A stretch of 20,000 bases of DNA from Amoeboaphelidium occidentale (GCA_023515795.1 JALGPX010000064.1:47358-67357); one strand, 5' to 3'; positions 1-20,000 are shown, counted from the first letter of the stretch. The notes: generated by a model not told the origin, from the sequence alone. Numbers and translations are program-made.

Positions 1-312
1 TCCTGCGGGAAGTGCCAAATATGGGTTACCGCCCTTCATTTGAGTACATCCTTCGGTATTCAGTTCAATCTTCAATGAATGGATCCTTCCACCAGTGCAG
101 AAGCCAACGGAAGCGTGACCAAACTCGTGCACCGCGGTAACAAGTAATTTGAATGGAGTAAGAAGGTGTTGTAGAATCGGAAAATTCCATAAAATAAAAA
201 TACCAATAGAATAACCCGCAATGAAGTACAGCGTGGTTTTATCATCATCCGACAATATCGTCAAAGAATCTTGTGCATTCTGTGGTGAGCTGAAAGTATC
301 AAGAGGTGCCAT
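1..312 (-). CDS. Peptidase M50B-like membrane metalloprotease, 5' part (runs off the window start)
   Basis: My translation from ATG at 312: MAPLDTFSSPQNAQDSLTILSDDDKTTLYFIAGYSIGIFILWNFPILQHLLTPFKLLVTAVHEFGHASVGFCTGGRIHSLKIELNTEGCTQMKGGNPYLALPAG. It has a hydrophobic segment, an HExxH motif (HEFGH) and the GG..LPAG pattern of M50B-like proteins. Absent from the ORF track because no stop falls in the window. Confidence 0.8.
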   Translation of the reverse strand, partial: MAPLDTFSSPQNAQDSLTILSDDDKTTLYFIAGYSIGIFILWNFPILQHLLTPFKLLVTAVHEFGHASVGFCTGGRIHSLKIELNTEGCTQMKGGNPYLALPAG

Positions 313-466
313 TAGTGCTGAAACAAGTTTTAACGCGGAAACTAACTTGTTACTCTTTTAGCAGAGAAAAGCAACTGCGCTAGAAGAAATAGCAAGCTTC
401 AAAGATCTTTGATTGGATTGCCTCGCTTGGCGTTTTGTTCTCGTCACGCTGCGCACAACCTACGGA

Positions 467-2705
467 ATGAAACAAATCTTTAACATTTCAGAGGAACAGC
501 CTTACTTAACACCAGCTTTTAAGGTTCCACCATCAAAGTATCACAACACGCCTATTGTTATTGACCATGGCTCATGGCAGACTAGAGCAGGTTTTTCTAA
601 GATGGACTCGCCCTGCTTGCAATTCGATAATTTATTGGCTAAAGTTAAAGATAAAAATACTGGGCAGAATGTTATTGTAGTTGGAAAAGATATTGAGTCT
701 TATGGGGAGAAAGGGCATGTTCGTAATGCGTTTGATGGTTCAAGTTCAGTCGTGGTTCACGGTGAAATGCTAGAACATGAATTGGAGTATATTTTTTCCA
801 ATTTAGGATTCAAAGATGCTGTTAAAAGTCCTGTGCTGATGACGGAGACTCTGTGTAATCCAGCAGCGAGCAGGCAAGTTACTTATGAAGTTCTGTTTGA
901 ATGTTACAATGTTCCACACGTAACTTATGGAGTTGATGCAGTCTATAGTTGCGCATTTAATGGCATATCACTCAAAGATGGCGGTATAATAATTTCTATG
1001 GGACATAATGCTACTACACTTATGCCGTTCTTTGATGGGAAGATTTATCATAACTGCTGTAAGAGAATATCACTAGGAGGATCGCATGCTTCAGATTTTA
1101 TGCTGAAACTAATGCAGCTGAAGTATCCTAACTTTCCTACAAAGATGACACTGGAAGAAGCTCAGATCTTGGTTAATCATCATACTCACATTCCAGAAAA
1201 CTTCTTTGAAGAATTACACTCGTTTGAGAATGTAGACTCCATCGAAGAAAAGGAGCACATTATTCAATTTCCTTACACAGAAGTTATGGAGACTTCAGAA
1301 GAAAATGCACAAGAGATAGAACAAAGGCGAGAGCAACAACGAGAGCGAATGAAGAAACATGTTGAACAGCAACGATTGAAAAAGCTTGAGACTAAAGAGC
1401 GTGAGCTTTCTGACCTTATTTCTCTGAAGGAAACTAAGGAAGAAGATCCTGATTCTTTTGCCACTAATTTGCTTATTGCTGGTTATGAAACAGAGAAAGA
1501 ATTGGATACTACGATCAGCTCGGCACAGGCTGCAATTAGGAAGATTAAAAACAAGATGGAAGGCGTCGAAGACGAAGAACCAGAAATTAAAGAAACACCA
1601 TCTTTTCCTCTTGTGGACATTCCAGATTCAGAGTTGGACGACGAGCAAAAGAGAGAAAAGAAGAAGCAACGTCTAATGAAAGCAAATTATGATGCCAGAG
1701 AGAAGGCTCGACAGGAAAAAGAAGCTCAACAAGCGGCATTAGAAGAAAAGGCTAAACTTGAAGAGGAAAAAAGACTGGCAGATCCAAAAGCTTACATTGA
1801 GGACCTGTATTCAAAGAGAACTCAAATTTTGGATAAGATCAAGGAGAAAAACAAGCAGTCTGAGGCCATGAATGATCGTAAGAGTAAGCTTGCCCAAAAC
1901 AGGATGAAGAAGCTTGTTGGTCTTGCTGATGATGGAGGACTCACGGCAGCCGGTACAAAAAAAAGAACTAGAAAAGAAGACGACGATGGTTTTGGGATGT
2001 CTGATGAGGACTGGATGGTTTATTATGATATCAAAAAGGGATCAGAAGAAGAAGAATTACAAGAACTTGAAGCAGACCTTGAAAATGTCGAGAATCTCCT
2101 TACACAATACGATCCTGAATTCTCACCTGATGACATTGACATGCAAACAGAGGAAAGAAACAAAAGTTTGTTCTATATCTTGAAGTATGGAAGAGATGGT
2201 TATCTGAAACATGACGATATCGCTGCACATCACCAGATTAGAATGAACGTCGAGAGAATAAGGGTCCCAGAAATTTTCTTTCAACCATCAATTTGTGGTG
2301 TAGATGAAGCAGGCATCATTGAAACCCTTCAGACTATTCTGTCCCAATTTACTAAAGAACAGCAGAGCATTATGGTCAACAACATATTTATCACTGGAAC
2401 TAATTCGATTTATCCTGGAATAGTAGAGCGTGTGGAATCAGAAGTGCGAGCATTTAGACCTTTCAAGTCTCAGTTTGGTGTGACACAAGCAAAAGATCCT
2501 CGTCTTGATGCATGGAGAGGAGCAGCACAATGGGTCAGAAACTTGGAGACAAAGAATCAGATACCAAAAGTATTTGTATCATACGAAGAATACATGGACA
2601 ATGGACCTGAATATTTGGTAAGATTGTTAACAAATGAAAATTGTTTTTAATCTGTTTTAGAAAGAACATCAGTACTCTAATCGGTACTACAAACTGCAAG
2701 GCTAG
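467..2705 (+). CDS. ARP5: Actin-related protein 5 (INO80 complex); exons 467-2617, 2661-2705
   Basis: Actin fold motifs (PIVIDHGSWQTRAG, PVLMTETLCNP, FECYNVP, ERIRVPEIFFQPS, DAWRGA) plus the large charged coiled-coil insertion typical of Arp5. First ATG at 467. A GTAAGA..TTTTAG intron at 2618-2660 restores the conserved end GPEYL|KEHQYSN. Confidence 0.93.
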
Positions 2706-2718
2706 AATCCTCCAACAA

Positions 2719-3582
2719 TCAATTATTCTTCTTTTCTTCCGAAGATTCTGGTCTCTTCGTGATAACTTCATCAATGAGCCCAAACTCAACTGCTTCTTCT
2801 GCGGACATAAAATAATCTCGATCTACAGCCTTTTCGATCTTTTCTAGTTCTCTTCCAGTGTGTTTGACATATAACTTGTTCATGCGATCTCTGATACTCA
2901 AAATTTCCTTTGCGTGGATTTCAATGTCAGAAGCTTGTCCCGAGTAACCACCAAGAGGCTAACAATGAAATAATAAGTGAGTTTCAGGGCTGTTTTACCT
3001 GATGTATCATGATCCTGGCATTTGGTAAAGAAAACCTCATTCCTGGAGCACCAGCAGTCAATAACATAGATCCCATTGACGAAGCTTGACCACAGCAAAC
3101 AGTTCTTACAGGGGAATGGATAAACTGCATCGTATCATAAATAGCCATGCCAGAAGTTATGTAACCGCCTGCACACAAATAAACAAATTTATAAGCAAAT
3201 ACATACCAGGCGAGTTAATGTACAAACTGATTTCCTTGTGTGGATTATCTGCTTCCAAAAATAAAAGCTGAGCAACGACCAGCGACGCAACATTATCGTC
3301 AATCTGACCATTCAAGCAAATAATCCGTTCCTTCAATAATCGAGAGAAACTTTCAATTTAGAATCCTTTAAAAGAGAATTGTTACATGTCCATCGCCCTT
3401 TCGCCGCCTCTTCCGCTCTGTTCAATGACATACGGGACCAAATTAAGTCTTGGCTCATCCCTTCTGCCATGCTGCGACAGATTTCCAAAAGCATTTCCGT
3501 TAAAGAGCCTTCGCCCTGCACTGAAACTCAAAGGGCCAACTAAATTCTGAGATAAATTCTTGTTAATGAGCGACTTTAGCAT
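2719..3582 (-). CDS. CLPP: Mitochondrial ATP-dependent Clp protease proteolytic subunit; introns 3350-3385, 3169-3206, 2959-2998
   Basis: Spliced product contains [45 protein letters not shown] (catalytic Ser), RIMIHQPLGG (His) and [19 protein letters not shown]-terminus is basic/hydroxylated like a presequence. All three introns are GT-AG and restore frame. Confidence 0.95.
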
Positions 3583-3783
3583 TCTTTTCGATTATGGGCA
3601 GTTGTTTCAACACGCTTCAAAGAAAACAAGAAAGTTGTGATAGCGAACAGTTTCTATTAGGCTCGCAATAAAAGGAATTAAGATGCTGGAATATCAAGAA
3701 CTGCTCTGACGCAATGATCAATCTGGGATACCTTCGTAACCATCTCTGTGACCTCCCGTTGGAGCACGACACGAATTGCGACA

Positions 3784-4707
3784 CTACTTTAAATCAGGCT
3801 CTCGTAACAGTTCGGCGGCAGTGCTTCTCTGGTTGTAATCGTAATGCAGCATCTTTAATATAAACTGTACAGTGACCTCATCGACGCCTAGTAGTAATTC
3901 TGAAAGATCACGTCCTTCTTTTGGTTCGAATGATAGTTTCATGTAATCTGGAGTATTGACAAAATCAGGCCATGTGGTAATTGGATTGCTGCCATTAGGA
4001 GTTCCCATCAAGTCAAAAACAACACATATCTGATCTATATCAGATGATCCCTTGAATAGAACTCGCTTTGTAAGCATTTCTGCCATGATACAACCACAAG
4101 ACCAAATGTCAACCCTGAAATCATAGTGCCTTGAAGCGAATAGGGTCTCTGGTGCTCGATACCATCGTGACATTATTTGATGGCTCATCTCTTCAGCTGG
4201 AGCGCATTCTCTAGCTAGACCGAAATCAGCAACCTTGATAACGCCGTCACTTGTTAACAAGATATTAGCCGGCTTTATGTCTCTGTGAATGACTTTTAAC
4301 ACATCGTGAACATAACACAGACCTGAAAGTATTTGTTTCATATAGTTTAAAGCTTCCATCTTCGTGATCCCTGCTTTGATTTTATCTGCCAAATTGTTGG
4401 GCACATGTTCAAAGACCATAATGGTTTCAACTCCATTCACTTTAGAATCCAACAGTTTGATCACATTTAAATGGTTTAATCTGTGGCATATTTCAACTTC
4501 TCTTTTTATCCTTTTGCGATGTGTCGGCGCTTCTCTTGAAGATGTTGGGCAGTAAACATGCTTGATCGCAACATAATCCTCATGATCATCTTTACAAATG
4601 TCACCCGAATGTTTCTTCTTTGCTAAGGCGACCGTTCCAAATGATCCCTCGGCAAGATCTTTAATGTAAATGTACTTGCCTAGAATTTCTCCCTTGGAAA
4701 ACATCAT
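3784..4707 (-). CDS. CDK20: CMGC Ser/Thr kinase, CDK20/CCRK-like
   Basis: Kinase motifs EGSFG, VAIK, HRDIKPAN, DFGLAR, RWYRAPE, DIWSCGCI. The strings SHQIMSRWY, DIDQICVVFDLMGTP and PDYMKLSF resemble CDK20 (THQVATRWY, DIEQLCYVLRILGTP, PDYNKISF). Likely ATG at 4707 or 4704; the longer ORF start at 4812 lies inside the upstream gene. Kinase call is firm, subfamily less so. Confidence 0.7.
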   Translation of the reverse strand: MMFSKGEILGKYIYIKDLAEGSFGTVALAKKKHSGDICKDDHEDYVAIKHVYCPTSSREAPTHRKRIKREVEICHRLNHLNVIKLLDSKVNGVETIMVFEHVPNNLADKIKAGITKMEALNYMKQILSGLCYVHDVLKVIHRDIKPANILLTSDGVIKVADFGLARECAPAEEMSHQIMSRWYRAPETLFASRHYDFRVDIWSCGCIMAEMLTKRVLFKGSSDIDQICVVFDLMGTPNGSNPITTWPDFVNTPDYMKLSFEPKEGRDLSELLLGVDEVTVQFILKMLHYDYNQRSTAAELLREPDLK

Positions 4708-6016
4708 AAGAAAAACTTTGCAAGCTTCGAACTTTAAATTTGATTTATTGAGCCTCTGCTGAAATCTTCTCATTATCGCCTTCAGGATCTGCTGGTGCTT
4801 CAACGCCCTCATTTAAAATGCTCATAATTTCAATTTGCTTTGTTAACTTGGCCTTTTCCCTCTCTAGCTTGGCGAATTCAAGCTTTGATAATTCCATGGC
4901 AGTTTTGTATGTCACATTCGACCTCTTTTCCAATGACCCAACAGTCTGAATGGAATATGATGCGCCATTCTGAAGCATCTGGTCAATTTTTTCTTCAAGG
5001 TTCTCATAAGTCACGGCATCATTTGGCGAAATGCTAAGTCCCGGAACAACGATTAACTGTGGTTTCTTTGTTGCTGCTTCTTCGCGCAACCTTTTCAATT
5101 CAGCAGATTTCTGTTTTCTCATAGCAACAGTTAATTGGTCCAGCGATGCTTTGATGGCGTTTCCTATATTAGGCTTGAAAGATTTAGTCTTGTTCACTTG
5201 ATCGTTCTGATCATCGGTTGCTTTGGCTTCATTCTTTAGTTCCATCTGCTTCTTCTGTATTTCCATATGATATTTCAATCGCNCAGTAAACATGCTTGAT
5301 CGCAACATAATCCTCATGATCATCTTTACAAATGTCACCCGAATGTTTCTTCTTTGCTAAGGCGACCGTTCCAAATGATCCCTCAGCAAGATCTTTAATG
5401 TAAACGTACTTGCCTAGAATTTCTCCCTTGGAAAACATCATAAGGAAAACTTTGCAAGCTTCGAACTTTAAATTTGATTTATTGAGCCTCTGCTGAAATC
5501 TTCTCATTATCGCCTTCAGGATCTGCTGGTGCTTCAACGCCCTCATTTAAAATGCTCATAATTTCAATTTGCTTTGTTAACTTGGCCTTTTCCCTCTCTA
5601 GCTTGGCGAATTCAAGCTTTGATAATTCCATGGCAGTTTTGTATGTCACATTCGACCTCTTTTCCAATGACCCAACAGTCTGAATGGAATATGATGCGCC
5701 ATTCTGAAGCATCTGGTCAATTTTTTCTTCAAGGTTCTCATAAGTCACGGCATCATTTGGCGAAATGCTAAGTCCCGGAACAACGATTAACTGTGGTTTC
5801 TTCGTTGCTGCTTCTTCGCGCAACCTTTTCAATTCAGCAGATTTATGTTTTCTCATAGCAACAGTTAATTGGTCCAGCGATGCTTTGATGGCGTTTCCTA
5901 TATTAGGCTTGAAAGATTTAGTCTTGTTCACTTGATCGTTCTGATCATCGGTTGCTTTGGCTTCATTCTTTAGTTCCATCTGCTTCTTCTGTATTTCCAT
6001 ATGATATTTCAATCGC
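4550..6016. repeat. 733-bp direct duplication (4550-5282 = 5284-6016) flanking a single N; probable allelic contig overlap
   Basis: Offset 734. I count five substitutions: 4651/5385, 4671/5405, 4711/5445, 5069/5803, 5111/5845. The junction is exactly the N at 5283. Confidence 0.92.
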
Positions 6017-6442
6017 ATGTCTTCTACAGCCTTTTTATATGCAGCAACAGGATCATTAATAACGGAAGCGCTGACTTCAATATCGCTAGGAACCTCTTGA
6101 GCTCGATCAGCAACAAGGAACGGCTTGACATTCTTCAATGCGTCGTGGTATTCTTCGGTTCTCTTTTCTTCTTTTGCCTTTAATTTGCGTTCCTTCTTGA
6201 AAGCCCTTCGTTCGCTTGGAGGAACCCAAGGCACACGACCTTCTGCTACTTCGTAATTCTTTGAGAATTCAGGCGAAAACTATAATTAACGCGATACTTT
6301 GCCAAATACTTACCCTTGAGCGTCCTGTAGCATTATGTAGAATCGTGCTCTTTGATGGTGTTACTCTTCTTAGTGGCGATATATGCGATCTTTTTGGTCT
6401 TATCGGCGGATGCCTTTGTCGCAGCACAAAACTTGCAATCAT
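5479..6442 (-). CDS. Predicted mitochondrial coiled-coil protein, possibly mitoribosomal small-subunit protein mS26-like; exons 6442-6314, 6279-5479 (3' part repeated at 4745-5282)
   Basis: ATG at 6442. Exon 1 (MIASFVLRQRHPPIRPKRSHISPLRRVTPSKSTILHNATGRSR) is R/S-rich with no acidic residues, like a mitochondrial presequence. A 34-nt GTAAGT..TAG intron (6280-6313) joins in frame to the 251-aa ORF. Motif VTYENLEEKIDQML..SY resembles the MRPS26 C-terminal motif as I recall it (ITRENLEARVEAAL..NY). Confidence 0.6.
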
Positions 6443-6464
6443 CTACCAATAAATGAAATTGCGA

Positions 6465-8016
6465 TTAAGCGACTATATTAAAATCATCATCAAACTTGAA
6501 CCCAACCAAACTAAATTTACTCTTCTTTGCCTTCTTGCGCTTCTTCTTGGACTTGGCTGAACCGTCTTCTGTTGCAGGTCGTCTCTTCTTCTTTTGCTGT
6601 TCCGTAGTGTTTTCCCTGTCTTCTAGAGTGAAAATATCTACTTCATCTTCAGCACCACTGGCAATATCGTCAGGATATATCGGAACATTCAGTACATCAT
6701 CAGACAGTTCCCATTCATCATCATCGTCTCCAAACGGCTGAATCTTTTCAATTGTGACAACATCAACGTCAATGTCTTCTTCTTCAAACTTCCTTCTTGT
6801 GACTTCTTCTTCTGGGATGATATCAAACTCATCTTCTTTTTCAATGTATTCAACATTAGTTTCTAATTCTTTGAAATCTGGAGCGAATGCACTCCAATTC
6901 TCCTCAGCTGTTTTAGTCCACAGATAGATCACTCCGATATTCGAAACAGAAGCCATTAAAGGCTTCAAAGGATGACAAGACATGTCTTCTACAGGTTCCT
7001 TTGGGCCTTCAAGGATTTTCGTCAAACTGCCAATATTAAGATCCCAAACATATAATTTATGATCATCGCTACTTGCTCCCATAACATAATCTCCTGTCCA
7101 ATTGAAACAACAGGAAGACCATTGGATCCTATTAACAAGATCTTGAAACTTGTTCAAGAGTTCAGGTTCTTTTGTTTGTTCCTGCGACAAACTGTATAAT
7201 CTGAGAATACGATCAGCTGCATTCACCAACATATTCTTTCCATTGCGACTAACAACTATCTGTCGAATAGGAGAATTACTCGTTATTTTTGTACTGAACA
7301 AATGATCATGATTTACAAAAGAGAAAGCGTGAATGTATCCCTTGTTTGTTCCTACTAATAATCTCTTGCCTTTGAGATCAAAAGAAACTACACATGTCTT
7401 GTTTGGAGAATCTTTGTGTGTATCCGAGGAGAGCGCATCATTTGATGGAACTAAAAAGGAATGTGATCGTGCATACTCTTCACCAGGAGCCCATTCCACC
7501 ACCATAGGCCAAGAATCTTGAGTACAAACAATTAAATTAGAATTTGATGGATCTAAATGCACACTGTCTATCGAAGTGTTAAGCCTCAAAGTAAAAGCAC
7601 GATCCAACTCAACAAGGTCCCAAACAATAACATTCCAATCAGAGGAAGATGAAACAAAGTATCGACCATTCTTGCTCCAACTAAAATACTCAGCGACAGA
7701 ATTAATCGATGGAAACCTTATAGAAGTAACAGGGCCAATGTGCCCTGGCAGCGTCAGAACTTTGCTTCGAGTAATAACATCAAAAATCAAGCAGCGACCA
7801 TCTCGACAACCTGCGCCGAGTAGCGTTCCTCTCCGATTAAATCGACAAGTTGTAATGCAAGTATCATCCAGGCAGTCGTCGATAACCTGCAATAATAATT
7901 AGTAAACACAAAAGCATAATAGGAACATACTTCCGGAAGCTCTTGATCAAAAGGGTCTTGACAAAAGTTAACATAAACGAAGCTTAATGAAACTTACTGA
8001 GTAATGTTATGTTCAT
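6465..8016 (-). CDS. SWD1: COMPASS/Set1C WD40 subunit Swd1/RbBP5; introns 7957-7997, 7887-7930, 7681-7716
   Basis: Spliced N-terminus MNITLLNPFDQELPEVIDDCLD..CRFNRRGTLLGAGCRDGR. WD40 repeats, then the diagnostic ENWSAFAPDFKELETNVEYIEKEDEFD motif and a basic NLS-like tail. Confidence 0.95.
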
Positions 8017-8162
8017 TCCGTAAAACTATTTTCCCTTCTGAGTATGTTACGATAATAATAAAAAATGTTCCACAGAGTCTGTTGGGAACAAAACAGTTTT
8101 GCAAAGAGCACGGAAGCGAGCGAGCGAGACAAATCGTTTTCTTGTCCCAATTTCCACACAGA

Positions 8163-8685
8163 ATGGCAATTTACAAAAGCCTCGCAAACTTTCTAGACAG
8201 TAACTTATGCAGCCCTGAAACCCTTTTTGAAACTAATTTTACAGAACGGCTGGTTTTAATTTTACGGGATGGACGCAACTTAATTGGAGTGCTTCGATCT
8301 TATGATCAGTATTGTAACACTTTACACTTTTTAATTCTTATTAACCTTCTGCTGCTGCTGCTGTTGTTGTTGTTTCTGTGTAGCTAACCTCGTATTCCAA
8401 GATACCGTCGAAAGAATCTACGCAAAGAACATGTACGCAGACATTCCGCGTGGAATATTTCTAATCAGAGGAGAAAATGTTGTAACGATGGCAGAACTTG
8501 GCACAATTGAAGAATGCATCGAGGCAGAAAGGAAAAGAGGCCTTTTGGGTCCAGTGGATGTTCAGCAAGTTCTAATGCTACAGAAGGAAGAATTGGATCG
8601 CAAGGAACGCATGCAAAAGGCAAAGAAGATGATCATACTAGAAAAGGGCTCAGACTTTGAGATGGATTCTGTTCAGTTTCAATAA
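8163..8685 (+). CDS. LSM1: Sm-like protein Lsm1; introns 8200-8244, 8314-8383
   Basis: Spliced: MAIYKSLANFLDKRLVLILRDGRNLIGVLRSYDQYSNLVFQDTVERIY...DIPRGIFLIRGENVV. Has Sm1/Sm2 motifs and the Lsm1-type C-terminal helical extension. Confidence 0.92.
8349..8372 (+). repeat. (CTG)5(TTG)3 microsatellite inside Lsm1 intron 2
   Basis: Read directly: ctgctgctgctgctgttgttgttg. Confidence 0.9.
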
Positions 8686-8701
8686 TCATAAAATCGGCAC
8701 T

Positions 8702-9914
8702 TTATTTTGCAGTGGTTTCAGCTAAATGGTTAGCACTCGTGCGTCCAGCCCTGAAAACAGATTCCTTGAGTCTCTTTCTTTCTCTTGTATTCGCATCTGA
8801 TGGAACGTAAAACTCACAAATGAAACTGACAATATCATCTTCGTTCCATTCTACTTTAGCCCTTGGGCCCCAAATGTACTCGACATCTTTTGGGTCTTTA
8901 GTTGTACTCTGGTTGAATCTCTCAAGATATCTAAAATTAAAATCAGTTAAAGCAACAAACGGAAACAGTTGTTACCCTTGTTTAACCCAAGTGTCCAGTA
9001 GAGCTTCCATATCACCAACATGATCTTCCAGTCTTTTACCTAAAGCATTCTCTGTGAAACCAATAGACAACAAGTATCTAGTCAAGATCGCATTTTTCAA
9101 GCATCCTTGGCTTAGATAAATAAATACCAGAATCATAGTCAATGCACCGTAACCAACTTGTTGATCTTCCCTTAACTTCAGCACTTCTCTTTCTTGCTTT
9201 TCCATGATAGAGCACAGAGAGAATACATCGCTGGTCTTCTCTGTCTTCTTCACAGATGAATTCTTGTAAACAGCTTTCGTTGGCCATGAAACAACTTTGA
9301 AACCAAAAATATTCTCCAAGCGCATCTTTACTTTATCAAACAGCGGTTCAAATTTCTCATTTCCGATTATCTGGCGCACATCGGACTTCGTGAAACTTTG
9401 CTTCTTTGACTCTTTGAATAGGCACATTCGAATAACGTCACGGATTCTGCGCTCTGTTTCATTGGCTGCCTTTTTTGGTAACTGACTTTTCCTGCGCTCA
9501 GCCGGAGCTACGTGAGCTGTTAGTGTGCTCTGACGGGCGACGCTCTTCCTGCCTCTCCTTCTGTTTGAGCTTGTTGCTTCTTCCATTTCTTCGTCGTCTT
9601 CATTATCGCTAACCACGAAATCATTCAAATCTTCGTCAGCTTCCTTTGAGCGTTTCTTACGGTTCTTACGAGAGTCCCTTACGGAAGACGACGGCTGTTC
9701 AGATTCTTCCTGGTCTTGGTCTTCGCTTGGAATGTTTTGTTTCAGTGGTAGCGATTCCCTGTTACGCTGCGATTTTCTTCTGGTCGGTTTCAAGTCGTCA
9801 TCAGCTTCGATTTCTATTGGCTTTGAGCTGACCACATCGTCTTCGTCCTCATCGTCGTCTCTAATTCTTCTTGGCTAAAGGTTAGTAAGGGAATGTTTGA
9901 AAGGTTCGTACCAT
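8702..9914 (-). CDS. NSE3: Smc5/6 subunit Nse3 (MAGE domain); exons 9914-9912, 9874-8976, 8930-8702
   Basis: Disordered charged N-terminus, then MAGE features: IRDVIRMCLFKE, LENIFGFKV, GALTMILVFIYL, WVKQG|YLER and EYIWGPRAKVE (MAGE WGPRA motif). Introns 9875-9911 (CTAAC branch) and 8931-8975 restore frame. Confidence 0.88.
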
Positions 9915-10144
9915 CTCAAACAGCGTCACACAGAAAAGCAAGCGAAGCACGGCGCAACAGTTTCGCAGTCGGTACTCCTTCTGGCGCGCACCAGAAAAGC
10001 ACCAAAATTTAGATAAGACTGAAGATCTTCTCGTCTTAGGCTTACAGATATGCTCATTAAACTATCTTGAACTTTCATTAAGATTTCTTTTATTTTTACC
10101 CTTCGCTTCCGCTCAGGAATTCGTAATAATCTGCAAATGGAAGG

Positions 10145-11272
10145 TTACAAGAAATAATCAGGAGTTCTTCTGGTGACATGTGGTTCTCCTCTTCTTGGGG
10201 CAGGTTCAAACTGTAAGAAGTTGTACTTCATGTGCTCATCTAATTCCATAACTGCAGCTTGATTTCCGCAACGATAACAGTAATTAGGAGCACTAAAGAT
10301 TGTAACAACATTATGATCTTGCGACCAGTTGTAGCCTTCCATAACCAATTGATGGGCTCTGGCGACTAATTGAAGACCGTTATTATGATTGAAATTCTCT
10401 GAAATATCTTGACCAAAGGTGTATCCAGCACCGCGAGGAGAAATACCCCAACCACAACGATCATCAGGATCAGACCATAACAAGTCACACATTGGGCCTA
10501 CACAAAGTTTAAGTAACAGCAAGATCATAAATGATACCTTCATGTGGTACTTCTTGAATACGATCAAGAGCTCTGACATGATCCAAAGTATCAATAGACG
10601 GAGATAATCCACCATGCAGACAGAATATCTGATTCTCAACGATCGCAGTCAAAGGAAGATAATCAAATAAGTCAGTAAAGAATTTCCAAACGTTTGCGTT
10701 TCCGTACTTTCTAAGGCATTCATCGTAAAAGCCGTAAACTTGGGTAATCTGTCTGGACTCATGGTTTCCTCTGAGGATAGTAACTCGGTCCTTAAACCTG
10801 ACCTTCAGCGCAACCAACAAAGTGACAGTTTCAACGGAATAGTATCCTCTGTCAACGTAATCACCCATAAACAGATAATTTGTGTCTGGAGAGTTACCGC
10901 CAATACGGAATAGTTCAATTAAGTCATGGAATTGGCCATGGATGTCTCCGCAGACCTTCAGGATCAGATCGCAGTGCCAGATCGCAACTTACCGTAACAG
11001 GAGCTCTTACAGGCTGCACATTCGACTCTTCAGCCAAAATTTCTCTGGCCTAATGGATTACATGAGAAGATTCTTCTTTAAAGTGTTGTGGGTACCTTGT
11101 CGCATAGACGCTTAATATCGTTCTCTGGTAATTGCTTGCACTGGCTCAAGCTCTGGACCCAAGCATCTAATTCTCCGATTTCAATGTGGGCTGAAGTTGA
11201 AGATGTGGATGGGGCTTGCCCTCCTGAAGTGCTTGAGACGGCTGATGTTACTGCTGTAGCAGGTGTGGCCAT
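10145..11272 (-). CDS. PPH21: Protein phosphatase 2A catalytic subunit; introns 11050-11095, 10956-10992, 10498-10537
   Basis: [35 protein letters not shown] and the PP2A-specific C-terminus RRTPDYFL. Confidence 0.96.
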
Positions 11273-11540
11273 TTGGTCAGTTGTTTCCTACAAAAAGAAG
11301 CGACTTGGAATCGCTCTTTAAGCTTTCGCACAGTTACGTTACGGTATGACATTTAAAATTAAGATTTCACATTTAAGTGTCTTTCAGAGGGAATATCAAC
11401 CGCTTTAAAATGCTATTAAAAGGTCCCACATTAGAAGTATAGAGGCGAAACACTGAAAGCTTTTTGCTCGAGAATGCGCCACAAAAAGAACCGAAAATTG
11501 ACAACGATTTTTTCCTTTTATAAAAATTTAGAGTCGAATT

Positions 11541-12455
11541 ATGGATAGCTCAAACCCATTTTCTATCCTCGCTGAACAGGATGAACCAAAGATTGCTGCT
11601 GCACCAAAGAAGCAGCCAGCCAAGACACAAGCGGCTTCTATCCCTGGTGCTGCTGCTCCATCAAAGTCTTCCGCTGCACAGAATGGAAAACAAGCTGGAA
11701 AGCCTCAGAAGTCTTCTGCTGCTCCTGTTGATAAGAAAGTCGAAGGTTTTTATAAGCGCGTTTATTGAGTTTAACATTCAGGTTCCGATCAACCTATTGC
11801 TAATGGACATCACGAACATCGTCCTCACCACGGGCCAAGGAGAGGCCAAAAAGGATGGCACGGAAGAGGCCGCACATTCGACCGTCACTCTGCTATGCCA
11901 AAGGACTCTGAGCGCAAAGCTAACGCTGGATGGGGAACTGGAGAGGCTCCAACTGATGCTGAGGGCGTTACTGAGACTGAAATTACTCCAACTGGCGCTG
12001 AAGGAGAGAACGTTGAAGTTGCACCAGAAGTTCAGGAAGAACCTGAAGCACCTGTAAAGACTTTGGAGGAGTACTTGGCTGAGAAGGCTGCAGCTAAGTC
12101 GAACATCACCAGACAAGTTCGCAAGGTTGATGGCAGTCAGTACACAGACGTTGTTAGAATTAAGAAAGACGAAGAAGATGAAGCTCTATTTCCAGGTGTT
12201 GCAACTGCAAGCAAAGAAGACGGTAACAAGAAGAAGAAGGATCCTAAGAAGACTATTTTGGAAATTGACGCACAGTTCCAGCAGGTTCGTGTAAGTGGTA
12301 GAGGAAGAGGTGGCAGAGGTAGAGGTGGTGATCGTGGACGCGGTCGTGGTCGTGGTGAATCGCGTGGTGGTTCTCGTGGTGGTAGAGGTGCAGGTCGTGG
12401 TAATGCTAGAATACCTGATGTAAAAGATGTCAATTCATTCCCTGTTTTGGCATAA
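11541..12455 (+). CDS. STM1: Stm1/SERBP1 (HABP4/PAI-RBP1) family ribosome-binding RGG protein; intron 11746-11781
   Basis: N-terminal SNPFSIL. Spliced RGRTFDRHS..GWG motif, KTLEEY, RGG box and C-terminal SFPVLA. Confidence 0.88.
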
Positions 12456-12529
12456 GTACTTAAAACAAAATAAAAGGTAAAATTTAAGTTCCTTAACGGA
12501 AGAATAAGATTTAATGAGAGATCGTGGAC

Positions 12530-13777
12530 TTAGCTACGCAAGAATTCCAAGCCCTCAAAATCGTGCACGGAAACTATTTCAGCCAATGCTTGCACTTTCT
12601 GTTTGCTTAGAACAACCTTCAAGCGCCCATAATTCGGCTTGAATGATAAGAAAGATCGTTTCTTCTTTGCTTCTGTTAAAACTGCCACAATGTGATCTTT
12701 CGTAAAACTATTCTGAAGAACATATTCCAATATAACTGTGTAACAATCATTTGATTCTCCATCAGGTCCAATAGTTTCAACTTGTAAGAATCCTTCATAT
12801 TTCACGAGAAGCTGTCTGAAGTTTTTCAAATTGCGTTCATTCAAAGATAAGCCAACTGCGACTGCCGTAAGTTCCTCTGAGCCTATGTTACATGCTTTCC
12901 TTGTAAATTCAATGATAGTAACAATTTGATCCCAGTCATCAATGACTTGCGACACTCGATGTAGGAGAAAGATGTAATACTGATCTTTCGACGCTTTATA
13001 TGGCTCTCCTGGTTTATACTGGCGCAAGAGAATGCCCAAAGCATCAGACGGTGTTCTAGCTTCAAACAGTTTCCTTAAGAAATCCCCAGCAGACTTATTA
13101 TCCAGAAGCATATTCTTTAAGCTATTTAAAGCGCCTAAATCAGCAATGAAGAATGAAACCATTTGAATAAGATAGTCATACAGATCATTACAGCCAGAAG
13201 TCAAAGCGTTGTAGATTCTCCTTTTGAGTCTTCGGGCCAATGGATAATTTTTAAAATATTGGTGCTTGTATGGATTAGAGCTTTCATACAACCCTGTGCG
13301 TACCAGCTGGGCGAATTCTTGAGCAGAAGGAACATTGTTCACCTTGACACACCAATTCGCCAATTCAAAGTTACACTCCGCCTTTGCGTCTACTCTGAGC
13401 ACACTGGGATAATTGACATTCCACTTGTCAATAATTGCCTTATTTCTGTCGAGCATCGCCTTGATGGCATCATTGAACTTCATACTTGTCGCAGTATCTA
13501 TCAAACTGCAATAGAACTCACATTCCCAACCGCAACCATTTCCCAATAAACCGTCTATCAATAGCCCAAGTAGCTTTGGGTTCAGCTCTTCATGATAGTA
13601 ATTTTGAATATCGTTATGCTTCATTATCAATCCTTTTCGTTGGTACCATACCATGACCCAATAGATTTCGTATAAGAACTTGAACTTTCTTGATCTTATC
13701 CTTAGTAAGTTCAAATGATCATTACGGTCAAGTAAAAAGCAGATCTCTTGAAGAAGTTCCTGGGGGAGGGATTCCAT
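12530..13777 (-). CDS. Hypothetical 415-aa protein with N-terminal F-box-like motif
   Basis: Uninterrupted ORF. MESLPQELLQEICFLLD..DHLNL fits the F-box consensus LPxELLxxIxxxL. The rest is not recognised. Confidence 0.65.
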   Translation of the reverse strand: MESLPQELLQEICFLLDRNDHLNLLRIRSRKFKFLYEIYWVMVWYQRKGLIMKHNDIQNYYHEELNPKLLGLLIDGLLGNGCGWECEFYCSLIDTATSMKFNDAIKAMLDRNKAIIDKWNVNYPSVLRVDAKAECNFELANWCVKVNNVPSAQEFAQLVRTGLYESSNPYKHQYFKNYPLARRLKRRIYNALTSGCNDLYDYLIQMVSFFIADLGALNSLKNMLLDNKSAGDFLRKLFEARTPSDALGILLRQYKPGEPYKASKDQYYIFLLHRVSQVIDDWDQIVTIIEFTRKACNIGSEELTAVAVGLSLNERNLKNFRQLLVKYEGFLQVETIGPDGESNDCYTVILEYVLQNSFTKDHIVAVLTEAKKKRSFLSFKPNYGRLKVVLSKQKVQALAEIVSVHDFEGLEFLRS

Positions 13778-13849
13778 GGCTCTGTTCCGCTAGCTTTTGC
13801 TCAAGTTTTGAAAGTGTCAAGAAGATTCAAGATTGAAGAAAAGCACAAT

Positions 13850-15043
13850 ATGACTGTGACTCAAATTCAAAGCAGCGAAAAGATATCATGCGCGTTATTT
13901 ATGGCTAAGAAGAGGAGGAATTGTAAAATGCAACCTTTTCGCGGTGGAATGTATTGCGTTCAGCATTTAAATGCGAATGATGCCGAAAGCTCGGAAAACG
14001 ATCAAGCTAAGCGGATACCATGCCCTTTCGATTCTAATCACACCGTGTTCGAGGATCAATTAGAAAAGCATATGAAAAAATGCAATTCGAAGCCTCCCTC
14101 GGAGTACCCATTGTATTTTAAAAAGAATGTTAACGTGATATTGAAGGATCATGAAGAACAAGACGTAATACCACTGAAAGATCTTCCTTGCGAGGCAGTG
14201 GAGCAGTTTTTAAAGAAGATAGAACGGATATATGATCAAATTAAAGTTGATATAGTCGATAGAATAGGATCTTATGAAGGGCTGAACTTCACCTCCGAAA
14301 GACAAGTAAAGCACGCTGCGCAAATATCATCGATCATATCTCTATTGCACCTCAATGATCTTTTAATACCTTCTGAGGAGACAAGCTTTATTGAATTTGG
14401 TTCAGGCAGAGGAGAATTATCATTTTACGTACATCAAGCAGCTAGCGATCATATGGCTGCGACAAACTCTAGCATCATACTAATAGACCGCTCGAGGGTC
14501 AAGCATAAGTTCGATAATCATATACCGAACTGTAAAAAAATCTATATTGATATCAAGGACTTCAGTTTGAGTGATTACACAGAGAAAGAAGTTGTAGCAT
14601 ACAGCAAGCATCTTTGTGGTTCTGCTTCAGATTTATCAATAATGGCACTTCTAGGTAGCAACTCAAAAAGTTATGATCATTTCAAAGGAGCTGTTATCGC
14701 GCTCTGTTGTCACCATAAATGCTCATTCAATACGTTCTGCAACCAAGATATGTTACAAAGGTTTAATATTTCTCCTGAAGAATTTAAATACATGTCTGCT
14801 TGTGCTCCGTGGTACACAAATGGCATGCGAGATGGATTATCACCAGAAGATGGAGCATTGAACCATTACACGAAAATTAGTTTGGGTGCTCGTTTTGAGT
14901 TTGGTTATAAATGCAAAAGGATTCTTGACAATTTCAGAATGAAACTCCTTCAAGCAAAAGGATTTGATGCTACTTTAGTGAAATATTGCACACCTGAAAC
15001 TTCGCTAGAAAATGTTTGTCTCATCGTAAAGCGTAAATCGTGA
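13850..15043 (+). CDS. TRM13: tRNA position-4 2'-O-methyltransferase Trm13
   Basis: CCCH finger (CALFMAKKRRNC..YCVQH), CHHC finger (RIPCPFDSNHTV..LEKHMKKC), IEFGSGRGELS, SKHLCGSASD, IALCCHH and SLENV. First ATG at 13850. Confidence 0.94.
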   Translation: MTVTQIQSSEKISCALFMAKKRRNCKMQPFRGGMYCVQHLNANDAESSENDQAKRIPCPFDSNHTVFEDQLEKHMKKCNSKPPSEYPLYFKKNVNVILKDHEEQDVIPLKDLPCEAVEQFLKKIERIYDQIKVDIVDRIGSYEGLNFTSERQVKHAAQISSIISLLHLNDLLIPSEETSFIEFGSGRGELSFYVHQAASDHMAATNSSIILIDRSRVKHKFDNHIPNCKKIYIDIKDFSLSDYTEKEVVAYSKHLCGSASDLSIMALLGSNSKSYDHFKGAVIALCCHHKCSFNTFCNQDMLQRFNISPEEFKYMSACAPWYTNGMRDGLSPEDGALNHYTKISLGARFEFGYKCKRILDNFRMKLLQAKGFDATLVKYCTPETSLENVCLIVKRKS

Positions 15044-15057
15044 TAAGTTTTCTAAAG

Positions 15058-16885
15058 ATGATGAATGCTTCTGCTTCACGAATAAAGCGAACGTTTTCTG
15101 TTCAACTGAGGCCCTACCAAGCAGAGTGCATCCGTGTATCTTTAGGGAAGCTGCAGCAGGGCGTCATGAGACAGGCCGTTTCTTTGCCAGGTATCTGCAT
15201 GTAATCGAATAATAATTGATAGTAAAGTTGGTAGCGGCAAGACTGTGATATTTTCTAATCTGGTTTCTCAAATACCCACCCCTACACTTAAGCCTAATGC
15301 GCATAAATGTCTGATATTGGCGCACCGAGAGGAATTAATACAGCAAGCTTACAATCATTTATGGAAGCATAATCAGGATAAGAGAATCGCACTGGAGCAG
15401 GGCACTAAGAGAGCAATAGTTGACGATGCAGATATCATCGTTGCCAGTGTACCGACACTCGGAAGGAAGGGTTCTTCGCGCTTACTTAAGTACGACCCTT
15501 CAAAGTTTAAAGCGATCATTGTCGACGAAGCGCACCACGCTGTTTCAGATTCTTACAAGCGTATATTTTCACATTTTGGTTTAATGAACGATGCAGCTGT
15601 AAGAAACGATCATACTCTACTATGGGGATGTTCCGCTACATTGTTGAGACACGATGAGAGACATTTGGCTGAAATTTTCGATGAGATTATTTATCATTTG
15701 GACTTGAAGGATATGATAGCGCAGAGTTATTTATCGGAATTCAAAGTGCACACTGTCAAAACTCAAATCAGCTTTGTTGATAAAGTGAAACGCAAGAATG
15801 GCGATTATGATGCAGAAACTTTAAACAAGGCTGTCAATACTCTAGAACGTAACTTGATGGTGGTAAAAGTTTATAAAGACATGGTAGAAAAGTATGATTT
15901 GAAGTCTACTTTAGTTTTTGCGGTGAATGTTGATCATGTTCAAAAGCTTGTTCATACATTTCGAGAACAGGATATTGCTGCGATCGGCTTAACGAGCGAT
16001 ACAGCGCGAGCTAAAAGGTTTCAAGCCATCAGGGATTTTAGAGAAGGAAAAGTTCCTGTTTTGGTCAATTGTGGAATATTGTGTGAAGGGACTGATATTC
16101 CGAACATCGATTCTTTAATTATGGCCCGACCAACGCTAAGTCCTATTCTTTATCAACAAATGCTAGGTCGTGGTTCAAGGCTCTCTCCTGGAAAAGATAA
16201 ATGTCATGTGATTGATTTCGTGGATAATTGCTTAACTCATCCTCCAATGAATGTTCCAGCGTTGTTTAGAGAATGCAGTAATGAAGGGGATTCAGGAAAG
16301 AACATCTCTGTAAAATTGAATAAGAAAATACCGCTACAAAAACCTGCGTACATTGAGGTTTTCCAGGATCTTGTGGAATGGCAGCTGTTTTCCGAGAAAG
16401 ACTGGCTAGGCGTGCTTGCAGATTTCAAACACAAGTCTAGACTTTCTTGGCTTATTCATTCTTGCAACAACACACAACTTAAAGAAGCAGGACTTGACCT
16501 AGGAAAGGATGGGTATTTTTATTACAAGGAGAATGAAGAAAATTTTTACTTAATCAACTTTGACTGGAAGAATAATATTTCATCCAGTGTTGCTTTTGAT
16601 ATTGGGCCAGGAGCCAGTTTTAATGCGGTTATGAAATATATGGATTCATTGGTACTATCGCGGTTTAGGGGCGCAAAAAAGCTCGTGTTAAAAAGTTTGC
16701 CATGGAAACGGGAGCTGTCTACGGAAAAACAAATTCTTTACTTAAACAGTTTGATATCCTCTTTCGGCAAACCTTTAGCTTTAGATGAAGGCGCAAAGTT
16801 AACCAAAGGAGATGTCGCAGATATGATCACATGTGCGAAGCTGATGATCATCAGAAACCAAGCTCATAAATTCTCAGTTGTATAG
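15058..16885 (+). CDS. IRC3: Mitochondrial SF2 DExH helicase Irc3; exons 15058-15190, 15228-16885
   Basis: Spliced Q motif LRPYQAECI and Walker A LPVGSGKT. Also LAHREEL, DEAHH, SAT, EGTDIPNID, QMLGRGSR and the Irc3-type C-terminus (W..STEKQ..LTKGDVADMI). Confidence 0.9.
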
Positions 16886-17040
16886 AGTACAATGGTTTCA
16901 ACAGAAGCATTGCATTCCCCAAAAACAGAGGGGAATAACATAACACATCGTTTCCGAACAATCACAAATCCTTAGTTTTACAGTTTAAATCAACGAGTCA
17001 TTGTACAATGACTCGCACAGAGCCTAATACATAGGATGCA
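16886..17040 (-). ncRNA. Candidate Fanzor omegaRNA scaffold / element right end (boundaries uncertain)
   Basis: Directly 3' of and overlapping the Fanzor stop. Perfect 22-bp palindrome 16994-17015, AUUGUU-CGGA-AACGAU hairpin 16962-16947, and AUUCCCC-9nt-GGGGAAU hairpin 16936-16914. Position matches where TnpB/Fanzor omegaRNAs are encoded. Confidence 0.45.
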
Positions 17041-17986
17041 GATTTCTTTTTAGCGGCATTTTCTAGCGCATATTCTGAGGAAGTCGATTGTCCTGATTCT
17101 TTGTCTTTGGGCTTCTTTTTCTTCTTCTCCTTCGGATTGCGCCCATTCCTGTCTTTCTTGTTCAAACCATCGTCCTGTCCACCATCATTATTATCATCAT
17201 CTGATTTATCGTCTGGAGGTTTGCACAGATACTCAGGACGTTCTCCTTTCTCCAGAATAGCAGACAACGCAGCACACATGTTGTCAGCAGCCAATATATC
17301 TCTGTGGAATACGACGTTGCACTTGGAGCATTTCTTCGCCCTCATAGACAGCGATTCTGTGAACTCATGACATCGGACACATTTCTGGGAAGTAAAGTAC
17401 TCATCTACGCCAAGAATCGTTATCCCCAAAGGCCTTGCTTTCCTCACAAAGTATTCCAAGAACGAAGTGTGAAGTGAACCAGTTGCGTCAAAGTCTCCAG
17501 TGCCAATTCCAACGTAAATCCGTTGTTTCTTCTTGACCTTCTGATGTGGTTTCAAGCCAACCATGGAAATCAAAGCATTGAAAACACGATCCATCTCTCT
17601 TTGCTTTGCACAATGATATTCAAAGGTCCTCTTCCGAATTGCATGTGAATTGTAGAAATTGGCCAAAACTGAGTATCTTTCCATCATTCTGTTGAAATAA
17701 ATAGTGATTGTTTCATCTGAATTTCTGGACAAGCCACAATTTTCCGCATCTCTCACTGGCTTATTTTCATCTTTCATTTTCGTCTTGTTCAGCCAGTTTC
17801 TGTGAAGATAATACGGTTCACCCAGGGCCTTCTTATTCACGGCTAAATTCTTCTTTGAGCCATCGGGCAGCCACGAAACAGCAACAACAGTGTACGCTTG
17901 TCCCATATCCAGTCCCATGATGATATCCTTTCCTTTTATATATGCGCGATCTCTTGAAACAACTGGTGGAGGTGGATTCTTCTTAA
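16998..17986 (-). CDS. Fanzor (TnpB-like RuvC nuclease), C-terminal part, variant 1, catalytically intact (fragment A)
   Basis: RuvC-I IMGLDMG (D at 17909-17907). Gly at the canonical RuvC-II site (YVGIGTGDF) with relocated Glu in GVDEYFTSQKC (17402-17400). Zn finger CVRC..CSKC. RuvC-III HRDILAADNM (D at 17300-17298), then RPEYL. Frame is open up to the N at 17987. Confidence 0.9.
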
Positions 17987-17987
17987 N

Positions 17988-18564
17988 GCCCTCATAGACA
18001 GCGATTCTGTGAACTCATGACATCGGACACATTTCTGGGAAGTAAAGTACTCATCTACGCCAAGAATCGTTATCCCCAAAGGCCTTGCTTTCCTCACAAA
18101 GTATTCCAAGAACGAAGTGTGAAGTGAACCAGTTGCGTCAAAGTCTCCAGTGCCAATGCCAACATAAATCCGTTGTTTCTTCTTGACCTTCTGATGTGGT
18201 TTTAAGCCAACCATGGAAATCAAAGCATTGAAAACACGATCCATCTCTCTTTGCTTTGCACAATGATATTCAAAGGTCCTCTTCCGAATTGCATGTGAAT
18301 TGAAGAAATTGGCCAAAACTGAGTATCTTTTCATCATTCTGTTGAAATAAATAGTGATTGTTTCATCTGAATTTCTGGACAAGCCACAATTCTCTGCATC
18401 TCTTACAGGCTTGTTCTCATCTTTCATCTTTGTCTTGTTCAGCCAGTTTCTGTAAAGAGTATACGGTTCACCGAGAGCCTTCTTTTTCACAGCAAGATTA
18501 TTCTTCGAGCCATTGGGCAGCCAGGAAACAGCTCCAACAGTAAAGGCCTGACCAAGATCCATAC
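17988..18564 (-). CDS. Fanzor internal fragment B, variant 2 (RuvC-I to Zn finger)
   Basis: MDLGQAFTVGAV...VDEYFTSQKCVRC..SLSMR. Aligns to 17338-17914 at offset 650. Bounded by Ns at 17987 and 18565. Confidence 0.88.
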
Positions 18565-18565
18565 N

Positions 18566-18858
18566 CTATACTTTGTATCGATAACGTGAATTGATAAACT
18601 AAAACCATCTGTTTCAAAAGAAGTATTTAAAACAAATCTTTCACCTAAATCTTTCCGGCCAATAAGTCTGTACTTTCTGTACTTTTTGCTCTTCAAACCA
18701 AAAATCAGTTGTAGCAACTCGCCTGTTCTGTCCCTTTTCATCAGAGGACCATCTTTTTTAGGATCGAGAAAATCCTTAAACCATAGCCTGGAGTCTCTAG
18801 TACCTGTAATGCCAAGAAGACAGTCCTCCGTAAGACTTAGAGGAAACAAAGACGGCTG
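18566..18858 (-). CDS. Fanzor internal fragment C (pre-RuvC/WED region, variant 1, open frame)
   Basis: QPSLFPLSLTE...RTGELLQLIFG...SFETDGFSLSIHVIDTKY, containing the TDG motif that precedes RuvC-I in Fanzor1 proteins. Matches 19318-19610 except at 3 nt. Confidence 0.8.
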
Positions 18859-18859
18859 N

Positions 18860-19316
18860 CTGTTGAAATAAATAGTGATTGTTTCATCTGAATTTCTGGA
18901 CAAGCCACAATTCTCTGCATCTCTTACAGGCTTGTTCTCATCTTTCATCTTTGTCTTGTTCAGCCAGTTTCTGTAAAGAGTATACGGTTCACCGAGAGCC
19001 TTCTTTTTCACAGCAAGATTATTCTTCGAGCCATTGGGCAGCCAGGAAACAGCTCCAACAGTAAAGGCCTGACCAAGATCCATACCCATGATAATATCCT
19101 TGTCTTTTCTATATGCGAGGTCTCTTGAAACAACTGGTGGAGGTGGAGTGTGCTTGACTTTCCTACATCTTGTATCAATAACGTTGACTGATAGGCTGAA
19201 ACCGTCAGTAGCAAAAGAAGTCATCAAAACTAATCTCTCACCAGAATCTTTCTGACCAATTGTTCTGTACTTTCTGTACTTTTTGCTCTTCAAACCAAAA
19301 ATCAGTTGTAGCAACT
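18860..19316 (-). CDS. Fanzor internal fragment D (WED to RuvC-I, variant 2)
   Basis: LLQLIFG...SFATDGFSLSVNVIDTRC...IIMGMDLGQAF...TITIYFN. 18860-19085 appears identical to 18339-18564. This fragment physically links the TDG region to RuvC-I. Confidence 0.85.
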
Positions 19317-19317
19317 N

Positions 19318-19832
19318 CTATACTTTGTATCGATAACGTGAATTGATAAACTAAAACCATCTGTTTCAAAAGAAGTATTTAAAACAAATCTTTCACCTAA
19401 ATCTTTCTGGCCAATAAGTCTGTACTTTCTGTACTTTTTGCTCTTCAAACCAAAAATCAGTTGTAGCAACTAGCCTGTTCTGTCCCTTTTCATCAGAGGA
19501 CCATCTTTTTTAGGATCGAGAAAATCCTTAAACCATAGCCTGGAGTCTCTAATACCTGTAATGCCAAGAAGACAGTCCTCCGTAAGACTTAGAGGAAACA
19601 AAGACGGCTGATATTTTGGCATGTATTTGTATCGCTGCGAAACCGGCAGCAGATTGTTCATAGCGAAGAAAAGCCGTACAACCGAATAAGTTTCCAACTT
19701 TGAAGGGTCAAATTCTGGAATTTTTGGTTCTGGCTTTGTATCTTCAGCGTATTCGCCCAGCTTGCGCTTTCTTGAACGCAATTTCATGGATCCACTCGTA
19801 CGCGCCGGCGTTTTGGTATCACTTTCGTTCAA
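19318..19832 (-). pseudogene. Fanzor N-proximal fragment E with in-frame stop (TAG 19472-19470)
   Basis: The frame continues past the TAG as LLQLIFG..TDG..DTKY. The same codon is GAG in fragment C. Contains NLS-like KLRSRKRK. Confidence 0.75.
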
Positions 19833-20000
19833 TTTATCTTTTGATTACTTAATTTCTGTACGAGCTAAACAATTAGAAGCAAATTAAGTAAGACTTACCT
19901 CCAGATGATCCCTCTAACTCTGACAATTCCCCCTTCTTCTCGACAGCAACTACCAAACATTCCAAAAGCTCTTGAGCGATTTCTGCATTATCAGGAACAT
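19829..20000 (-). CDS. Partial spliced coding region (intron 19865-19898); either the frameshifted Fanzor N-terminus or the end of a separate gene
   Basis: Open frame VPDNAEIAQELLECLVVAVEKKGELSELEDHLE, then GTAAGT..CTAAT..TTTAG, then LVQKLSNQKIN*. The stop overlaps the start of the Fanzor frame. Confidence 0.55.

Follow-up and report, generated by a model that had tools for sequence, protein, structure and literature searches.

Complete copies of an aphelid Fanzor1 family encode a fused FEN1/EXO1-like 5′ nuclease

Complete copies of a multi-copy Fanzor family in the aphelid Amoeboaphelidium occidentale encode one protein of ~1,150 aa, in which a FEN1/EXO1-like 5′ nuclease is fused to Fanzor1. 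One copy lies at the end of the 20,000-nt stretch of DNA analysed here (the window), whose nearest proteins are those of A. occidentale. Its insertion is polymorphic, the site being empty in related strains of three studies. The region in which the copy appears, 16988–20000, consists of five contig pieces that overlap one another, with a single N at each join, and is an assembly jumble of a multi-copy element.

Results

Genomic setting and published catalogues

Ahead of the element the window is dense with housekeeping genes (Table 1), and the element lies about 100 nt past the stop codon of the helicase gene, tail to tail with it. A 419-aa open frame at 12530–13789 on the minus strand, with no Pfam match and an F-box-like start by eye, is likely a lineage-specific accessory gene among these housekeeping genes. 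The Fanzor had been taken for the only accessory element of the genome in a preliminary description of the sequence; this claim fails, its family being multi-copy, with at least ten named A. occidentale gene models and 26 rows for the species in supplementary file 3 of PMC10432273. Nor does the novelty implied there for the Fanzor hold. Fanzor1 in A. occidentale is already catalogued in the supplements of PMC10432273 and PMC10711439: KAI3658407.1 (model P0017), which is 97.3% identical over 328 aa to the piece of the window termed S2 below, is placed in branch FZ1 of the former's supplementary file 3, and Table S2 of the latter holds four fragments of the family.

No description of the fusion came up in the literature searched. 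Fusion terms retrieved no such architecture from the accessible text of PMC10432273, PMC10711439, PMC10530073 and PMC13565253, and "XPG" is absent from the accessible portions of the supplements searched; bioRxiv supplements, subscription papers, patents or Repbase may describe it. By eye, fused sequences sit unremarked in the published tables (GJJ71697.1, KAI3661525.1).

Table 1. Features of the window, numbered from its first nucleotide
Feature	Position	Strand	Remark
Housekeeping neighbours	1–16885		M50B peptidase-like, actin-related protein, kinase, WD40 protein, LSM, MAGE-domain protein, phosphoesterase, HABP4-like, TRM13, DEAD/ResIII helicase
Host flank	16968–16987	−	Predicted guide (spacer) of omegaRNA; just downstream of element end
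ATT core	16988–16990	−	Right end of element; common to filled copies and empty site
Perfect palindrome (hairpin), 22 nt	16994–17015		Contains TGA stop of the ORF
Piece S2	16998–17986	−	Continuous with unique left flank; RuvC-I D to stop
RPEYL	17240–17226	−	Terminal motif
HRD	17306–17298	−	RuvC-III; D at 17300–17298
CSKC	17330–17319	−	CxxC
CVRC	17381–17370	−	CxxC
DEYFTSQKC	17405–17379	−	Holds relocated Glu
Relocated E	17402–17400	−	In S2
GIGTG	17510–17496	−	Gly at canonical RuvC-II
RuvC-I D	17909–17907	−	In S2
GLDMG	17915–17901	−	RuvC-I
Single-N scaffold joins	17987, 18565, 18859, 19317		Create apparent tandem array
Piece S3	17988–18564	−	From another copy; repeats RuvC-I to zinc finger, 94% to S2
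Piece S4	18566–18858	−	WED region, includes TDG; frame open; 5-nt gap at join to S2
Piece S5	18860–19316	−	WED/TDG to RuvC-I; second subfamily (P0011-like)
Piece S6	19318–20000	−	Part of REC, basic linker, WED; open towards window edge
In-frame TAG	19470–19472	−	S6, conserved stretch; Glu in S4
In-frame TAA	19845–19847	−	S6, variable linker; Glu in P0011
Intron	19898–19865	−	GT-AG, in S6

A Fanzor1-type nuclease with a rearranged triad

All motifs on which the Fanzor call had been based are present on the minus strand between 17915 and 17226, and the TDG motif reported upstream was found in three upstream pieces. Their spacing, E-x6-CxxC-x13-CxxC-x6-D, fits the Fanzor pattern given in PMC10711439, and the glycine at the canonical RuvC-II position fits the description in PMC10530073. 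Of the features that define Fanzor1, we found a Gly/Pro position at the canonical RuvC-II Glu, here glycine, together with a substitute Glu placed six residues ahead of the zinc finger (PMC10711439, PMC10530073, PMC13565253), a complete D-E-D triad, TDG in the WED domain (PMC10711439) and, for the full-length paralog P0019, an enlarged REC/WED/RuvC fold nearest to the solved Fanzor1 structures. The DPG signature described for RuvC-I (PMC10711439) is replaced by DMG/DLG, so the protein is a Fanzor1 variant and not a typical member.

The Pfam family Cas12f1-like_TNB matched with 44.6 bits (cut-off 26.3, E 1.6e-11), and the best profile match was SpuFz1 (8gkh, E 6.7e-19). Structural references for Fanzor1 were SpuFz1 (PDB 8gkh, 9ceu–9cez), PpFz1 (9cf0/9cf1) and GtFz1 (9cer). 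The predicted structure of S2 (pLDDT 83.9) matches TnpB/Cas12/Fanzor RuvC domains, with SpuFz1 and Cas12f tied by Foldseek. Ranked by Z, the best match of this RuvC fragment was Cas12f at 14.3, with GtFz1 at 10.3, and the fragment alone does not separate Fanzor1 from Cas12f/TnpB by fold. SpuFz1 was missing among the best 50 matches of a wide structural search with the fragment, and a single-sequence PDB search with S2 gave weak matches (best E 0.0035). Foldseek with the full-length paralog P0019 returned Fanzor1 at all of ranks 1–7. Both the Fanzor1-type call and the rearranged triad stand.

The apparent array is an assembly product

Five single Ns occur in the window, one at 5283 and four that divide the Fanzor region into pieces S2–S6, in which one protein stretch is covered up to three times. 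S3 and S5 overlap by 226 nt with 100% identity, S4 and S6 show 3 differences in 293 nt, and S2 runs into a low-complexity tail followed by the stop. The N at 5283 provides a control join, across which 733 nt of ordinary genes are duplicated at 99.3% identity with 5 differences; the duplication is the same scaffolding artefact as in the Fanzor pieces, probably made of two alleles. The doubled stretch lies at 4550–6016 and comprises a protein-kinase gene with the 3′ end of the adjoining gene.

Contig evidence was drawn from runs X1–X5, the small shares of runs X6–X19 being excluded; X1 is possibly the source sample and is not independent. The preliminary description had stitched a frame of ~500 aa from separate pieces. 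The S4–S2 join is real and in frame: four contigs, three from X1 and one from X2, bridge 18566 and 17986 with 5 letters, and P0017 spans it uninterrupted. The size does not stand, since the Met of MKLRSRK is internal and is preceded by 224 of the 637 residues that form the Fanzor module in P0017. That the locus is a real tandem array encoding a stand-alone Fanzor of ~500 aa from MKLRSRK is highly improbable: P0017 does have an open 485-aa frame from this Met, but 224 residues of the fold, among them the first strand and the greater part of the helical lobe, would be missing, and the repeats break exactly at single Ns that contigs bypass.

Along their length the pieces alternate between P0011-like and P0017-like sequence, so that either the copies are mosaics or the assembly mixed copies; mosaic copies would fit frequent gene conversion. 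The named model of the locus itself, P0010 (855 aa), is a chimera spliced across the Ns. Several A. occidentale Fanzor models in supplementary file 3 of PMC10432273 contain internal duplications around the letter X, which indicates that N-join chimeras are present in published Fanzor sets.

Full-length copies carry an N-terminal 5′ nuclease

The frame of the window copy extends upstream of MKLRSRK, across a 34-nt intron and up to the window edge. A clean model of 1,144 aa is provided by P0019. In its predicted structure (103-sequence alignment, pLDDT 80.8), residues 2–300 superpose on EXO1 with Z 22.1 and rmsd 2.7 over 265 aligned residues, and residues 457–1080 on PpFz1 with Z 17.3 and rmsd 5.1 over 489. 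P0017, 97% identical to S2, combines XPG_I above cut-off with TNB in one model, and XPG_I is also above cut-off in P0015, P0019 and P0022. The N-terminal domain of the sister copies thus has both the FEN1/EXO1/XPG fold and seven acidic metal-binding residues, at what we take to be the corresponding positions in FEN1 numbering. In P0017 the element protein begins near residue 413, and the ~410 residues ahead of it, which contain a WH2 motif, resemble a host gene mis-fused by annotation. From this sister copy we infer that the window copy once had the 5′ nuclease, the domain lying beyond base 20000.

Two further proteins of the species in supplementary file 3 of PMC10432273 (rows 630 and 1394) have a FEN-like start by eye: KAI3658238.1, of 1,219 aa and outside both Fanzor branches, and KAI3661525.1, in FZ1. 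They are possibly further or independent fusions.

State of the window copy

The suggestion that the copy has an open reading frame holds for S2 and S4, which are open, and does not hold for S6, which contains an in-frame TAG and TAA. This copy may be a relic, a reading to which we give serious weight while leaning slightly the other way, and which is compatible with a living family and with the explanation favoured below. Each of the two stops stands where another copy has Glu, and an X1 contig covers the TAA without difference; yet S4 is open at the TAG codon and may be the piece, or another allele, that belongs here, the TAA falls in a variable linker where, by eye, splicing to an AG 27 nt beyond the first acceptor would bypass it in frame, and S2 is without a stop. 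Comparison of S3 with S2 over 190 codons gave dN 0.029 and dS 0.199, as expected under purifying selection. An altered genetic code at the Glu-to-stop sites was rejected, the neighbouring genes being open over 435–745 codons with table 1.

Spread and conservation of the fusion

A search with P0012 gave 426 representatives at E ≤ 0.001, and the following figures rest on 150 of these 426 matches. Among the matches listed, both domains are present in 15 of the 16 relatives of at least 850 aa, a count biased by the query, which itself carried both, and the 5′ nuclease is found in all 14 relatives with at least 600 residues before WED. This shows that a fusion clade exists; the frequency of the fusion among Fanzors does not follow from 15/16. 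In 21 long proteins the seven nuclease positions are acidic wherever covered (14/14, 17/17, four times 20/20, and 21/21), and the RuvC D, E and D are likewise kept (20/20, 18/18 and 18/18), at a median identity of about 0.24–0.25 in either domain. DPG at RuvC-I occurs in 4/20 fusion relatives. Divergence of the 5′ nuclease is correlated with that of the Fanzor domain in 15 proteins (Mantel r 0.47, 2/2000 permutations), for which shared ancestry alone may account.

The Atlas cluster nearest to P0012 has 58 members and 1,312 aa, with Mucoromycota the commonest. The clusters nearest to the nuclease domain belong to giant-virus/poxvirus G5 and XPG families (0.94–0.95), a viral kinship that we treat as no more than a lead. 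In vaccinia virus, G5 mutants show a defect in repairing double-strand breaks (PMC9415595), and the accessible part of PMC5499597 makes no mention of TnpB or IS605.

An exact right end and an empty site

The element ends 8 nt past its stop codon. Its 3′ end is joined to another flank in 17 contigs among those listed, from four runs; matching ends at 16988 in ten, at 16987 in two and at 16984 in two, so that the sense triplet ATT is included in 14 of the 17, and the remaining three represent one degenerate site. X4 has two contigs with other flanks at 16988. The empty site is seen in contigs of X2, X3 and X5, from three studies, which follow the host flank to 16990 and then continue with an identical 30 letters of foreign sequence. 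Contigs of X2 and X3 match the flank at about 97% over 1.3–2.0 kb and hence come from related strains. In X1 a 38-kb contig crosses the flank into the element, with no empty-site end among the matches listed. The ATT core is either a target duplication or a crossover core.

The palindrome that contains the stop codon is the sole perfect inverted repeat in the 20 kb with an arm of at least 8 and a loop of at most 6, and 16988–17016 shows no variant among the matches listed (40 of 53). Family members stop at differing positions in the tail, yet share the last ~90 nt, which suggests constraint on the nucleic acid and not on the protein. The palindrome is likely part of the omegaRNA and/or an end signal. 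No conserved RNA fold was detected beyond it, the last 241 nt folding no better than shuffles (z +1.17), and copy variants at 17033–17034 weaken a second small stem. An Rfam search assigned no family, with one chance match at E 0.33. The DNA pattern of the right end had 0 matches when viral, metagenome and prokaryote contigs were scanned for it, and of the candidate stretches from protein-based locus scans (35, 533, 88 and 87) none was confirmed.

Loose ends at 17029, 17051 and 17250 in X2, X3 and X5 contain the last 40–260 nt of the element followed by unlike sequence; these contigs represent either families that have diverged or ghost-like copies reduced to the end.

The model of P0017 covers 5,430 nt, of which 4,692 are coding; the non-coding part is at most 738 nt, including the gap to the upstream WH2 host gene, and leaves no room for an upstream transposase. 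The element is likely ~4 kb long with one gene. As regards Helitron2 features, a 3′ hairpin is present, and only the right end is in view.

Discussion

The explanation that we favour, with restrained confidence, is that this multi-copy, insertion-polymorphic fusion cuts element-free alleles under RNA guidance, while trimming by its second nuclease lets repair copy the element into them. An omegaRNA would be transcribed across the tail of the ORF, the palindrome and the ATT and would run 14–20 nt into the flank, this part serving as guide. The Fanzor module would then cut the empty site at a TAM of about 5′-TATT, as read from one locus (TTTATT when empty, TTGATT when filled), and position −4 would tell self from target, the filled site reading GATT. 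The tethered 5′ nuclease would resect the ends or remove flaps, promoting gene conversion, with the filled allele as donor, at the expense of end joining. New insertion sites are beyond what homing by itself explains; they would probably be reached via a transposase supplied in trans, and no transposase was found in the sequences analysed.

Several of these steps apply rules established elsewhere. In studied Fanzor1 systems the RNA extends 14–15 nt beyond the element end, the 3′ duplication is in the scaffold and the 5′ duplication is part of a 4–5-nt AT-rich TAM; TnpB cleaves empty sites and thereby restores elements (PMC13565253, PMC10711439), and restorative homing is established for TnpB/IscB (PMC13565253). 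By application of the Fanzor1 rules, the guide would be the flank after ATT; this assignment follows from the variation of the flank between copies and from the analogy with studied Fanzor1 (PMC10432273, PMC13565253). Resection or de-flapping is the simplest role that can be inferred for a tethered EXO1/FEN1-like domain.

Alternatively, the Fanzor might perform ordinary restorative homing with the 5′ nuclease serving in omegaRNA maturation or in the clean-up of intermediates left by a helper, either a rolling-circle (Helitron2-like) enzyme or another one that reads the 3′ hairpin. We regard this as unlikely. It draws on the 3′-terminal hairpin and the T-rich upstream site, which recall Helitron2-borne Fanzor1 (PMC3627910), and on a summed depth that is higher at the 3′ end (about 2,000–2,700) than in the flank (106); depth does not give a copy number, however, and diverged families with the last ~90 nt in common account for part of the excess (X1 contig, 16987–17077).

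Less likely again is a transposase-free, one-gene element whose mobility is the work of the fused protein alone: the Fanzor cut and the FEN1/EXO1-like nuclease would accomplish both homing and insertion at new ATT sites via host repair, by opening these sites and trimming the flaps of a copy-in intermediate. The P0017 copy without room for a transposase, the ATT common to many insertion sites and the conservation of both active sites among relatives at ~25% identity all point this way. Against it, we know of no strand-transfer chemistry for either fold. In addition, Fanzor1 elements that lack a transposase are common and have been interpreted as non-autonomous (PMC10432273, PMC3627910). If the fused protein did act alone, the element would amount to a naturally occurring cut-and-resect editor that still moves in aphelids.

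The family bears on the role of Fanzors in their hosts. That a clade has kept a second, catalytically complete 5′ nuclease across ~25% identity points to break-repair control as one of the Fanzor's tasks. The family offers clean full-length models (P0019, and P0017 from ~413), an exact right end, filled and empty alleles, and a predicted guide and TAM.

Among known systems, the N-terminal domain resembles the FEN1/EXO1/XPG 5′ structure-specific nucleases (PIN-like) in its fold (Z 21–22) and its seven acidic residues, and differs from them in being fused to an RNA-guided nuclease within a mobile element. The element shares the absence of a cis transposase, a conserved 3′ end and an AT-rich target with the transposase-less Spu-1, the Mucor elements MCi-2/MCi-5 and the Helitron2-borne CRe-1/2/3 (PMC3627910); it has a 3-nt ATT core, whereas MCi-2/5 have duplications of 11–12 bp or 6 bp, and a second nuclease is unmentioned for any of these elements in the accessible part of that paper. 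With Fanzor1 it has in common the relocated Glu, the zinc finger, TDG and the best profile and fold matches. Unlike SpuFz1, in which ~80 nt separate the stop from a 30-nt inverted repeat (PMC10432273), the stop here is so close to the element end that the predicted RNA would have to overlap the ORF. The family further departs from Fanzor1 in its RuvC-I, which reads DMG/DLG and not DP, and in the extra ~450 N-terminal residues that carry the FEN1/EXO1-like nuclease of the fusion.
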